Source of the DNA: Candidatus Woesearchaeota archaeon
Lineage (GTDB): Archaea; Nanobdellota; Nanobdellia; Woesearchaeales; JAZDKJ01
DNA: 64,000 bases
Direction: 5' to 3'
Assembly (NCBI GenBank): GCA_043803105.1
Contig: JAZDKJ010000012.1
Location: 96,001-160,000, forward strand
Part shown: positions 27,001 to 30,000 of the stretch, piece by piece
Position numbering within the stretch: position 1 is the stretch's first letter
How the letters are laid out: every line of letters begins with the position of its first letter
Made by a program: the position numbers

Positions 27001-30000
27001 CTTGCCTGATGCTAGCATTTCAAGGCATCCACGCTGCCCGCATCCACAGACAACCCCCTTCGTTATTGTTGGGTCTATAACCATATGTCCAAACTCCCCT
27101 GCTCCTCCTATTGCGCCAGAGTATACTCTTCTGTTGATTATTATTCCTCCGCCTATTCCAGTCCCCCATATGACTCCTATTGATATTTTCTTTTTCCTTG
27201 CTGCTCCAAATGTTGCCTCAGCCAATGCAAAGCATTTTGCGTCATTCATAGCATCAGCCTTTAGCCCTGCTGCTTTCTCCAATTCTTTGCTGAGGTGCAA
27301 TCCATTCAGGCAAGTTAGTGTTCCGCCTCCCCAGATAATTAAGCCAGTATCATCGATTAGCCCTGGCAAAGAGACACCAACTCCATCAACCTGTGTTCCT
27401 TGAAGTTTTGCCTCGTCCTTAAGGTCTCTTATGACTGAGACAAGATTAGAAATTACCTGTTTTTTCCCTTTTTGTGGTTCTGTTGCAGTCCTTCTTGAGG
27501 TGATGAACTTGCCGTTCGCGTCTATGATGGCACCCTCAATCTTGGTGCCTCCCATATCTATTCCGATTGCATACTTCATACCTGCTCCTCAACAAAAGCT
27601 GTTTATTAATCTTTTGAAAATGTTTAAATATCAAGACAGAACATTGCTTGTTATGAAATGCGAAATCTGCAAGAAAACCATCGAGGAAACCTTTCTGAAG
27701 AAGGTCGTAGGTAGTTATCTCAAGGATAAGAAAGGAAAGAAGCACCTGATCTGCCCTGACTGCCAGAAGAAATATCCGAAGAAGGAAGACATTCTTACGC
27801 GGCTCTAGCCGCATATTATAAATACCAAAATCAATTAACCCTTCTAATGCCTCTGTAGCACAGTAGCTACTGCGTCTGCCTCGTAAGCAGAAGATCGGGA
27901 GTGCAACTCTCCCCAGAGGCTTTTCAGGTTTTGTTTGGATGTTTTTCCCAGGTTTTTGCATATTGCAAAAAGCTGGTTGGGAGCGCACATCTCCCCAAGG
28001 GCTTTGTTTCGATGTACTCTCATTTTAGTTCAATTTTTTCCCTATCCGCAATATGTTGTATCTGTATAGTGATAACAAAGGAAACATTTATATACTTGTT
28101 CTGCTTGGATTTATCATAGGATGAAAGTCAAAAAATCAATTGAAAATGGCCTTGAAAAGGCCTCCGAATGGCAAATAGCAACTGCAGGTATCCTTGCTTT
28201 GCGGGGCAGGTCTTTTGCGAACAGAGTCAAGAGAAACTTGGTAAAGAATGACAAACTTGATTACTGGACTGAGGTTGCCTTGAACAGGTGGTATGTGCCT
28301 ATTGACAAGATTCCCAGGGAAGACAGGATTTTCTACCACCCACCTACAATAAATCGAATCATACAAGGAAATCTCCTCCCTTCCATGAGACATGGCTCTG
28401 GCATGGGTGAATACAAGCACATTGCGTTGATTCTTAAAGGTTTTAAGGATGTTCCTTTGGAGGAAATCGCCAGCACCAGAACGTACTTCGAGGATGGCTG
28501 TAGCGATTACTCAAGTACAATGGTTAGCGCAGATTTCCTTTTCTATCTTGTGCGCTCAAAAGAAGAAGAAAACATCCTTATGAACGCAAAAAAACCAGTG
28601 TACTTCTTGGGGCCAGAGATTAAATACAAAAGTTAGTCAATCGTAAATAAGATTTTCTTCTCCATATGCCAATCATTTCACCACACAAATCTTTATATTT
28701 GCCGAGGATACTTCATCTTCATGGACCTTGAATTGCACATGCATCCCTTTAACAATCTGCTTGAGGATATAGTGCATGCCATGGACTCAAGGAAGATTGG
28801 TATATTGGCTGTTGAATCACTCGATGCTTCGATTTTTCCAAGGGTTCGGGCTGCAGCAAAAAGCCTTTATTCCAATTTAATAATTGATGATGCCGGGGTA
28901 AAGCTTCCCTCAGGAAAGACTATCTGGAATGGAAGAGAATACAGTACCAGTGAAGGATTTCACTTGCTTACCATTGGATATTCGCTTGATACCAGACCTT
29001 ATACTGAGATAAGGAGGATTATAGATATTAGCTTGAAGCACAATGCACAGGTAATCCTCGACCACGGTTTTGTCGACAATAATCTTACAAGGACTGCAGG
29101 TCACATTTCCAGAGAGTCTGAATTTGAGTTGAACGATCTCTGCAAAGAATATCGCAAAGAAATAGCGTTGGAATGGAATGCTTATTGCAAGCCATGGATG
29201 AGGGCCAGCCTCTTGCTCATTTTGAATGCGCTCGGCCACAAGACACGATATTATGATGTGAACAAGAAGGTTGTAGAATTATCTAAGAGCATAAACAATT
29301 TTTATGGCCCGACACAAACTAAGCTTCTTCCCATCCTTACCGGAACAGACTTACATGCTATACAAAGAAAAATGCTTGAACTCATGGGAACTGCTAGGGT
29401 TAAGGCTGATGTGCAGGGAGAAAGCCCTTCAGAAATTTTGGCCTCTTTTAAGGAGCTGGTGCGTGCAGGTAAATACGAAAATACTTATGACTATGTTGGT
29501 TTTGTTCACCTTTTGGAAGCCTTTTGCCTACCGAAATTGTTCTTTAAGGACTATCAAGGTTTATAAAGAATACATACCCTTTTTAAATCCCAATAGCTTA
29601 CTGCCGCTCATGCAACGAGAGTTCAAGTACTATCCAGAGGATTTCAAGCCCTTGCCAGTCAAGGTCCTGCACATGGATCTAGTGTTTCATGTTTTTGATG
29701 ATCATACTAATGTCTCTTCTGACTTAAAGTTGTTTTCCTTAAAGGATTTGAGGGAACTTAGGCTTGATGCCTCAGACCTGAAAATTCTTAGGGTGTCCTG
29801 CGACAAGGCAGATCTGACTTTTGAAGTCAAGCCTAAGGACAATAAGCTTCTATTGAATTTCAAAAATGTTCTTAAGAAAGGTAAAGAATTTGTTATTCAT
29901 ATCGAATCAGTCTGCAGGCCAACCAAAAACATTCTGGAAGGCCTCTATTACGATGTCACACCGCAAGGTGCGCCTCCGACAATGATAACCCAATGCCAGC

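Follow-up and report, generated by a model that had tools for sequence, protein, structure and literature searches.

A tRNA-Thr(CGU) gene of a Woesearchaeota archaeon with A18 and G55 in place of the G18–U55 elbow pair

Which bases of the elbow have been exchanged in a tRNA that carries a G at position 55, and can such a molecule serve in translation? These questions are raised by a gene located in a stretch of 64,000 nucleotides from a Candidatus Woesearchaeota archaeon (contig JAZDKJ010000012.1, positions 96,001 to 160,000), which is named the window below. G18 and U55 (pseudouridine 55) are regarded as nearly invariant in non-organellar tRNAs. The gene, whose extent is read here as 27849–27921, is situated on the plus strand, as are the other features described here, and comprises 73 nt including the discriminator U73. 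It is a real tRNA gene, as the survey's finding had it: ARAGORN calls Thr(cgt), and the Rfam model RF00005 matches with 60.4 bits (gathering score 29) over model positions 1–71 of 71. An intron is absent and CCA is not encoded. The anticodon CGT (27882–27884) lies in the loop CUCGUAA and follows from the sequence as well as from the ARAGORN call. The T-loop UGCAACU (27902–27908) was read from the sequence as U54 G55 C56 A57 A58 C59 U60, which confirms the G at position 55 (27903). The TATA-like box TTATAAATA at 27816–27824, 25–33 nt upstream of position 1, is a putative promoter element according to its sequence and position.

For the D-loop AGUAGCUA (27862–27869), it had been proposed that C19 replaces G19. 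This register turned out to be wrong. Canonical relatives with an identical D-arm differ only by a G at the fourth loop base: they combine GCAU-AGUGGCUA-UUGC with the T-loop UUCAACU, whereas the variants combine GCAU-AGUAGCUA-UUGC with UGCAACU. Numbered according to these relatives, the loop consists of A14 G15 U16 A18 (27865) G19 (27866) C20 (27867) U20a A21. The same lone G → A difference is found for Val (GUCU-AGUGGCUA-UGAC in the present genome versus GUCU-AGUAGCUA-UGAC accompanied by UGCAAUU) and for Cys (AAGCGGCUAA versus the variant AAGCAGUAA). Judged by these comparisons, the sole change of the D-loop is G18 → A18; G19 and C56 are unchanged. Because the AGUGGCUA relatives have UUCAACU and the AGUAGCUA relatives UGCAACU, the changed pair is the known tertiary pair of positions 18 and 55. 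The Rfam alignment follows the register proposed before, with the A as an insert and the C beneath G19, but its posterior is only 7 in those columns.

Conservation of the fold was assessed by means of class members. The conserved G18 and U55 of RF00005 are replaced by A (27865) and G (27903), respectively, and the same holds for 13 of 13 aligned members; G19–C56, U54–A58, U8–A14 and G53–C61, which the model also expects, are invariant columns of the alignment. For these 13 sequences, 95.6% of 273 cells of the cloverleaf are paired; none of 500 shuffles scored as high, and slid controls gave 42–50%. Both sides have changed in 11 of 21 stem pairs, which indicates a compensatory upkeep of the four-stem cloverleaf.

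A Thr-type pattern search in 101 genomes of the order yielded 88 rows, of which four non-tRNAs and two rows ending inside an intron were dropped. A hand count of the 82 readable Thr-type tRNAs gave 46 with A-G and G55, 35 with G-G and U55, one with C-G and U55, and no mixed state; the genomes compared share ancestry, the principal numbers were obtained by visual inspection of the matches, and the patterns cover intronless genes having G53, C56 and C61. Control patterns for the mixed states, applied to the same 101 genomes, gave three matches for A-G with U55 and four for G-G with G55, and there was no tRNA among either. This finding bears out the claim that the change in the D-loop is coupled to G55. 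The lack of mixed states agrees with observations on yeast SUP4oc, where, in the accessible part of the study, no single mutation in G18–U55 was tolerated (PMC4117946). The D-arm signature of the class occurs far above chance, as had been held: it is present in 50 of the 101 genomes, compared with two matches in total for the reversed control. As had been seen for two relatives, G55 is the rule among the signature loci: it was found in all 30 that were fetched (28 parsed by script; L078 and L090 by eye). Since base 55 is a G, the stated inability to carry pseudouridine 55 holds as well. A third state also exists, in which AGUCGUA or AGUCGAA goes with U55 (L014; G061:C19).

The survey's finding had named four genes of this class in the genome. 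All of them exist and share the same D-arm and a T-loop with G55; the identity of one did not stand. The gene at C6:33644-33536 (T-loop UGCGAUU) had been taken for Met(CAT), a reading which we have set aside, as a Thr(UGU) tRNA with two introns fits better. The others, besides the gene of the window, are Ala(CGC) at C6:303770-303840 (UGCGACU) and Thr(GGU) at C6:525422-525512 (CGCACAU). In agreement with the promoter boxes claimed for all of them, a TATA-like box can be read about 25–38 nt upstream in four of four cases. The anticodon loops of the class are canonical, and the intron positions are common to relatives. The class thus covers the anticodons CGU, GGU and UGU, that is all three Thr isoacceptors found in this genome, plus Ala(CGC). 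That it supplies the only Thr tRNAs found is supported by a targeted scan, which detected no other Thr-type gene and in particular no canonical one; a hidden gene is possible, the catalogue being partial with 17 parsed genes from a genome that is 96% complete. The statement that 42 further tRNAs keep GG and U55 holds for 13 of these 17, which have GG and UUC; the other four are the variants, and the remainder lies outside the 17. Whole-genome calls are few (ARAGORN nine, with intron search on and off tried; Rfam six), because most genes carry T-loop inserts and not because genes are missing. For our own tRNA scan the filtered list was used, as the first two versions were too loose (663 and 984 candidates). 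A further scan, directed at the anticodon arms of Thr tRNAs, returned 231 matches, mostly due to chance, and was discarded; the targeted Thr-type scan replaced it.

Downstream of the gene, a copy of a genome-specific repeat occupies 27942–27975; it consists of TTTTTCCCAGGTT, followed by the hairpin TTTGCA-TAT-TGCAAA and by AAGCTG. The genome harbours eight exact copies of the short form and about 18 counting long forms, versus none in four relatives; 93 loci of relatives gave three chance matches only, and no Rfam family matched. The predicted fold shows the hairpin and is not unusual compared with shuffles (z −1.7). The repeat is followed at 27976–28002 by an orphan 27-nt tRNA 3' part of the same class, composed of the T-arm GGGAG-CGCACAU-CUCCC and the acceptor 3' strand CAAGGGC. 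It differs from the 3' part of the resident Thr(CGU) gene and is no copy thereof. A search of the genome for its 5' partner (GCCCUUG plus D-arm) returned matches in coding sequences only; the acceptor GCCCUUG/CAAGGGC is present in Thr tRNAs of relatives (L012, L068, L087). In this genome, Thr(GGU) and the orphan fragment both have the sub-variant CGCACAU, with C54 and C58. The pattern for this loop gave noise equal to its reversed control, only three rows being tRNAs.

The double change is not confined to the order. According to a tool tally, an intronless A18/G55 tRNA exists in 116 of 301 genomes of a phylum sample, or in 115 of 300 if the unpublished G297 is set aside; by eye, about nine of the listed rows are no tRNAs, and some eight genomes drop out with them. 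Sixteen A18/G55 genomes fall in other orders of the taxonomic class, across which seven identities carry the exchange: Thr, Ala, Cys, Val, Gly, Glu and Pro. The A18/G55 tRNAs are conserved over about 100 genera, with the T-loops UGCAAYU, UGCAARU and UGCGAYU. In viral contigs, the D-arm signature marks 14 different sequences that are really tRNA-like, and G55 is present in 13 of them; the viral contigs in which the coupling occurs include bacterial-looking initiator-type tRNAs. One viral initiator-like tRNA, L127, combines an A18-type D-loop with UUCGAUU, and because of this exception the coupling is not absolute. No prior description of the A18/G55 class was found in the literature searched, which comprised few subscription journals and no supplements.

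In our view it is likely that the gene encodes a working tRNA-Thr(CGU) in which the tertiary pair 18–55 was swapped as a unit, from G18/U55 to A18/G55, such that A18 would intercalate facing G55 and the tRNA would translate without pseudouridine 55. The rest of the L-shape framework (U8, A14, G15, C48, G19, C56, U54, A58 and G53–C61) is kept. By analogy to RNAs other than tRNA, A18 should replace G18 between A57 and A58, opposite G55, and G19–C56 should still cap the elbow; a molecule of this kind may then act in translation although pseudouridine 55 is absent. Expression, charging and the reason for the fixation of the swap belong to what we infer.

The elbow is probably not re-wired but an instance of generic T-loop docking, because UGCAA, together with the adenosine that the partner loop provides, matches the YGNRA T-loop of riboswitches with its intercalating A. 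The generic consensus, as given in the accessible part of a preprint (bioRxiv 10.1101/2022.12.26.521914), is YGNRA, with UGHAA favoured; an adenosine of the partner loop inserts between the fourth and the fifth loop base, where it faces the G of position 2. In FMN riboswitches, the intercalating base is an A in 99.96% and has one face toward position 2; the T-loops of tRNAs (UUCRA) differ from the generic consensus at just this position (same source). The T-loop studied here displays the five-base motif (U-G-C-A-A, which also fits UGHAA) plus two more bases (C-U), and the partner-loop adenosine is coupled to the G at loop position 2, as far as sequences alone can tell (46 A/G, 35 G/U, 0 mixed, n = 82). 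The sub-variant CGCACAU misfits YGNRA at position 5. More tentatively, and with some doubt on our side, A18–G55 could be a second, self-sufficient D-loop/T-loop docking of cellular tRNAs, in which the riboswitch contact (G at loop position 2 and an intercalating A) stands in for the tRNA-specific one and pseudouridine 55 is not needed; its origins would then be multiple, spread over no fewer than seven identities in a DPANN class and over tRNAs that viruses encode.

The pairing scheme originally put forward, G18–C56 plus C19–G55, amounts to a re-wired elbow: the G of A-G-C pairs with C56 and the next C forms a Watson–Crick pair with G55, giving an antiparallel GC/GC mini-helix in which the A has no special role. 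A pyrimidine does follow A-G in all variant D-loops read (mostly C, U in six genes), such that a pair or wobble with G55 is possible, and the Rfam alignment sets the C under model position G19. This pyrimidine is, however, independent of base 55, since C or U occurs at position 20 in both classes (GGC or GGU with U55, AGC or AGU with G55): GGC goes with U55 in the canonical genes of G088:C64, G034, G006, G021, G067, G099, G022 and G063, and AGU with G55 in the variants of G031:C3, G018, G048:C44, G066, G075 and G053. The C is consequently not specific to the class, and it is the base preceding the kept G which covaries. Moreover, two stacked Watson–Crick pairs would require a reversed path of the D-loop, because in the canonical elbow base 57 sits between the 18–55 and 19–56 layers, according to the accessible part of a review (PMC7912444), and the conserved A would have no explanation. 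We regard this scheme as quite improbable.

An influence from outside the tRNA is likewise unlikely: A18 and G55 might be coupled via an elbow-reading lineage-specific protein, by escape from an enzyme or nuclease dependent on G18 or U55, or by a swap replacing a pseudouridine-stabilised elbow after the loss of Pus10, a link which we retain only as part of this explanation. It is in line with the concentration of the class in tRNA-Thr and with the distribution of Pus10 (TIGR01213), which is above cut-off in none of 101 genomes of the order versus three of four archaeal controls; the only weak match in the present genome falls within Cbf5, and the absence of Pus10 from Nanoarchaeum equitans is stated in the accessible part of a published work (PMC7337903). 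Yet Pus10 went undetected irrespective of whether a genome has the variant, and most tRNAs of this genome retain U55. Because the coupling spans seven identities and viral contigs, including bacterial-looking initiator-type tRNAs, a single outside partner is improbable. Least credible, and in our estimation scarcely probable at all, is the idea that the genes are pseudogenes or encode tRNAs that take no part in translation, as is the case for the tRNA-Gly which Staphylococcus uses for its cell wall. The orphan 3' fragment of the class that adjoins the gene would suit it, but no Thr-type genes besides the variants, which supply three anticodons, were found in this 96% complete genome, the stems of the variants are kept by compensatory changes, conservation extends over about 100 genera, and neither the canonical anticodon loops nor the intron positions common to relatives would be expected.

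The swap of the 18–55 pair as a unit, which we prefer, is a natural and widespread double replacement and offers a ready compensatory pair for probing the role of this contact. In at least one genome, and as far as Thr genes were found, all threonine decoding depends on the A18/G55 class. The class links the T-loop of tRNAs with the generic T-loop of riboswitches and predicts cellular tRNAs which position-55 pseudouridine synthases cannot use as substrates. For annotation it carries a warning: such genes are real, and alignments to covariance models place their D-loop bases in a misleading register. If the reading as a second type of docking is true, a translating tRNA has no structural need of G18 and pseudouridine 55, and the swap may alter the recognition by elbow-reading enzymes.

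Compared with the canonical elbow, the class agrees in the cloverleaf, in U8, A14, G15, C48, G19, C56, U54, A57, A58 and G53–C61, in the T-loop of 7 nt and in the D-loop of 7–9 nt. The difference is A18/G55, with which pseudouridine 55 is impossible and the hydrogen bonds from G18 to base 55, as described in the part of the review at hand (PMC7912444), cannot form as such. With the YGNRA T-loop of FMN and cobalamin riboswitches, as far as the accessible text of the preprint describes it, the class shares the fit of UGCAA or UGCGA, two more loop bases (the second being U in nearly every case), an A contributed by the partner loop, and the engagement of position 3 in a long-range Watson–Crick pair (here C56–G19). 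In contrast to those RNAs, the motif resides here in a tRNA, whose consensus is UUCRA, the partner is the D-loop rather than a receptor loop, and the evidence is of the sequence kind. The non-proteogenic tRNA-Gly(UCC) NP1-3 of Staphylococcus aureus are, like the present class, natural non-organellar tRNAs without U55 and G18; according to the accessible part of the source (PMC13443448), G19 is missing from them too, their anticodon loop is shortened, and they are excluded from translation. Here, G19–C56 and the anticodon loop are canonical, G19 thus being retained when the other two bases are lost, and instead of coexisting with canonical isoacceptors the class gives the only Thr tRNAs found, no other Thr-type gene having been detected in the partial catalogue of this genome. 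The SUP4oc variants of yeast (Guy et al. 2014; PMC4117946, in its accessible part) resemble the class in that G18 and U55 are not singly changeable and in that D-loop registers slip. There, U20G rescued G18A, a G–G pair being restored by slippage, whereas the natural class changes the partner base 55.

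The 73-nt gene for tRNA-Thr(CGU) on the plus strand of the window (27849-27921) was called Thr(cgt) by ARAGORN and matched the whole Rfam model RF00005 with 60.4 bits, the gathering score being 29. It reads GCCUCUG-UA-GCAC-AGUAGCUA-CUGC-G-UCUGC-CUCGUAA-GCAGA-AGAUC-GGGAG-UGCAACU-CUCCC-CAGAGGC-U; the D-loop is without G-G, and window position 27903 holds a G at the usual U55 of the T-loop. A TATA-like box, TTATAAATA, is recognizable from sequence at 27816-27824. The genome under study (G000) comprises 1.56 Mb in 13 contigs (C6, C12 and so on) and is 96% complete; the window spans 96001-160000 of C12. 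The nearest relatives of its ABCE1 protein, at 54-73% identity, carry the label Woesearchaeota or Nanoarchaeota archaeon, which places the organism among the DPANN archaea. The D-arm signature GTAGCNYAGTAGCN3-5GCG matches this genome four times, exactly at the four tRNA genes named in the survey's finding, and all four possess G55 (T-loops UGCAACU, UGCGACU, CGCACAU, and UGCGAUU).

The survey had taken the D-loop to carry C19 for G19, with an elbow re-wired to G18-C56 plus C19-G55. Comparison of canonical with variant relatives places the change at position 18 (G to A) and leaves G19 in place. A Thr-type pattern (acceptor, D-arm, Thr anticodon, and T-loop; intronless genes only) was applied to 101 genomes, each from a different genus of the order. 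Canonical Thr genes (for example in genomes G088:C64, G034, G006, and G099) read GCAU-AGUGGCUA-(U/A)UGC with UUCAACU or UUCGACU, variant ones GCAU-AGUAGCUA-UUGC with UGCAACU; the sole D-loop change is the first G of G-G to A. The same exchange is seen in seven-base D-loops (AGUGGUA versus AGUAGCA), in Val (GUCU-AGUGGCUA-UGAC in G000 versus GUCU-AGUAGCUA-UGAC with UGCAAUU), and in Cys (AAGCGGCUAA versus AAGCAGUAA). Since C or U follows G19 in variant and canonical genes alike (GGC also occurs with U55, and AGU with G55 in G031:C3, G018, G048:C44, G066, G075, and G053), the class is best written as A18 G19 Y20 with G55 C56. The RF00005 alignment of the window gene treats the A as an insertion and sets the C under G19, which is the survey's register, with a posterior of 7 in those columns; here, the comparative data overrule it.

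A18 and G55 occur together. The Thr-type pattern gave 88 rows, from which four non-tRNAs (G081:C54, G096:C7, G036:C61, and G065:C3) were removed by eye, as were two rows ending in an intron (G079:C88 and G061:C40). Among the 82 remaining tRNAs, which come from related genomes and hence do not represent independent events, 46 combine an A-G D-loop with G55, 35 a G-G D-loop with U55, and none shows a mixed A-G/U55 or G-G/G55 state. The one remaining tRNA (G061:C19:16730-16789) has AGUCGAA with U55 and belongs to a third elbow state of some Thr tRNAs, also found as AGUCGUA in the relative's locus L014 (tRNA 3065-3163, minus strand), with C at the place of G18 or A18 and a normal T-loop UUCAAAU. 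All 30 signature loci fetched have G55. In the same 101 genomes, a pattern joining an A-G D-loop to UUC gave 3 matches versus 8 in the reversed control, and one joining G-G to UGC gave 4 versus 1; no tRNA was among them. Three observations argue for repeated switches between the two elbow states: different Thr isoacceptors of one genome can differ in state (G004, G081, G048, G003, G066, and G019); the syntenic Thr(CGU) gene beside ABCE1 is variant in relatives' loci L005, L006, L008, and L038 and canonical in L001, L012, and L015; and the swap is seen in the seven identities Thr, Ala (CGC, GGC), Cys (GCA), Val (GAC, CAC), Gly, Glu (CUC), and Pro (GGG).

In the canonical elbow, as described in PMC7912444, G18 lies between A58 and purine 57 and is bonded to U55, while G19-C56 caps the stack. 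For non-tRNA T-loops, the account in bioRxiv 10.1101/2022.12.26.521914 gives the consensus Y-G-N-R-A, with UGHAA favoured; the base intercalating between loop positions 4 and 5, an adenosine in 99.96% of FMN riboswitches, turns a face to position 2, and position 3 forms a long-range Watson-Crick pair. According to the same account, the T-loops of tRNAs (UUCRA) are distinct from others at position 2. With A18 and an unchanged G19-C56, the variant loops (UGCAA or UGCGA and then N-U) agree with this generic T-loop in every point. We infer from this that the D-loop would dock in the generic mode, A18 facing G55 and G19-C56 being kept, and that this would replace the contact of G18 with pseudouridine 55 that is specific to tRNAs. 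The absence of mixed states fits the report on yeast SUP4oc (PMC4117946) that single changes in G18-U55 were never tolerated.

The D-arm signature is present in 50 of the 101 genomes of the order, compared with 2 reversed-control matches. In a sample of the phylum, an intronless A18-G19-Y20 plus U54-G55-C56 pattern occurred in 116 of 301 genomes (115 of 300 without the unpublished G297; reversed control 5), a tally lowered by about eight genomes by the approximately nine listed rows that are non-tRNA by eye; 16 of the genomes with the swap lie outside the order but within the class. In viral contigs, the signature has at least 120 loci, mostly chance matches in coding DNA. Among the matches listed, 28 loci reduce to 15 distinct tRNA-like sequences, one of which (L123) is not a tRNA; 13 of the 14 real tRNAs have G55, in the T-loops UGCGAGU, UGCGAAU, UGCAACU, UGCGACU, UGCAAUU, and UGCAAGU. 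The fourteenth, the initiator-like L127, joins an A18-type D-loop to UUCGAUU and is the only mixed case among the tRNAs examined and the viral matches listed. Viral carriers of the A18-type D-arm lie among loci L096-L215 (e.g. L097, L102, L106, L120, L124, L127, L134, and L142); they include Met/initiator-like genes as well as genes whose odd anticodon loops lead ARAGORN to call them Leu or Pro.

The T-loop sub-variant CGCACAU (C54 G55 C56 A57 C58) has neither partner of the U54-A58 pair and falls outside the YGNRA motif. It is carried by tRNA-Thr(GGU) (G000:C6:525422-525512), by an orphan fragment in the window (loop at 27981-27987), by L075, by G038 twice (C161), and by G025:C1:511640, always accompanied by the AGUAGCUA D-loop. 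Because it is seen in three genera, it is probably functional.

As regards the modification of position 55, Cbf5 is encoded in G000 (NF003280, 431 bits; C6:453393-454391, L095:1348-2346). No Pus10 match exceeded the cut-off in this genome, the weak TIGR01213 and PF21238 matches falling within the Cbf5 gene. TIGR01213 was over cut-off in 0 of the 101 genomes of the order versus 3 of 4 archaeal control genomes, and Pus10 is described as absent from Nanoarchaeum equitans (PMC7337903). Its absence may have eased the swap; however, Pus10 was not found in variant-bearing and variant-free genomes alike, and the swap is also present in viral tRNAs. Therefore, the link is kept only as part of a rival explanation.

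Whole-genome searches of G000 found few tRNAs (ARAGORN 9; Rfam 6 above threshold) because most genes hold a T-loop insert. A filtered scan gave 25 rows; 3 of these are false and 5 give an alternative 3' end, which leaves 17 genes. The survey's statement that the other 42 tRNAs keep GG and U55 is checkable only in part; it holds for the 13 canonical genes parsed (G-G, UUC). Eleven of these 13 contain an insert of 15-91 nt past T-loop position 59 (UUCAAA or UUCGAA, insert, U; e.g. C8:8229-8126 and C12:74507-74683), often starting with (G)AGCU and ending with GAAA; none of the four A18/G55 genes does.

Directly 3' of tRNA-Thr(CGU), window positions 27942-28002 hold a 34-nt repeat (TTTTTCCCAGGTT, a covarying hairpin, AAGCTG) and then an orphan 27-nt tRNA 3' part, GGGAG-CGCACAU-CUCCC-CAAGGGC, which is no copy of the resident gene; a 5' partner was looked for and not found. 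In G000, this repeat occurs as 8 exact copies of the short form and, with long forms counted, about 18 times (e.g. C6:304004, C6:403733, C7:30643, C8:119692, C8:150876, and C12:181578); it is absent from the same-genus G078, from G001-G003, and from the 591 kb that cover relatives' loci. Some copies directly precede tRNA position 1, and there a duplicated 5' piece lies farther upstream; others lie past tRNA 3' ends or, in opposite orientation, in T-loop inserts. At tRNA-Ala(CGC) (G000:C6:303770-304055), two repeat copies lie downstream, and behind each stands an exact duplicate of the 3' part of this tRNA gene (26 nt at C6:303954-303979; 15 nt at C6:304041-304055). Downstream of tRNA-Pro(TGG) and tRNA-Arg(TCG), too, there is a second 3' end that matches the gene. 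The 16S rRNA gene (G000:C8:150105-151702) is overlong, 1598 nt versus a model of 1478 positions, and a repeat copy sits inside it at C8:150831-150876, straight after the GGATTAGATA region, so that this copy resembles an intron-like insert. The repeat itself could be a mobile intron, a small mobile element, or a processing signal.

The gene listed in the survey as Met(CAT) has the layout GCUGA, UUCAUUCUUUGAAUGAGGCCGAAA, CUUGUA, GCACAUGCAAGCU, A-UCAGC and was called Ala with an intron by ARAGORN. Relatives in L071 and L083 share the two-intron layout, those in L088 and L080 have the second intron only, and intronless ones possess the anticodon loop CUUGUAA; on this by-eye alignment, the gene is better read as Thr(UGU) with two introns. 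Counting it, the variant class would supply Thr(CGU), Thr(GGU), Thr(UGU), and Ala(CGC) in G000. Neither BLAST with the four genes nor a scan for Thr-type genes of up to 500 nt found a further Thr gene in this genome. In a gap-free alignment of 13 intronless members (the window gene and 12 loci), 95.6% of 273 cloverleaf cells are standard pairs, compared with 42-50% in slid controls, and both sides have changed in 11 of the 21 pairs; the covariation score of 0.556 (0.174 in shuffles) was reached by 0 of 500 shuffles. U8, A14, G15, G19, A21, C48, G53, U54, C56, A58, and C61 are invariant, and the anticodon loops are canonical. The kept cloverleaf, these anticodon loops, and the lack of another Thr gene in G000 argue for a role of the A18/G55 tRNAs in translation.

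A search of full-text literature, with subscription journals and supplements mostly outside its reach, turned up no account of A18/G55 tRNAs, and an earlier mention is possible. Among natural cases, the non-proteogenic tRNA-Gly of S. aureus comes nearest; as portrayed in PMC13443448, it is without G18-G19 and U55 but is excluded from translation.
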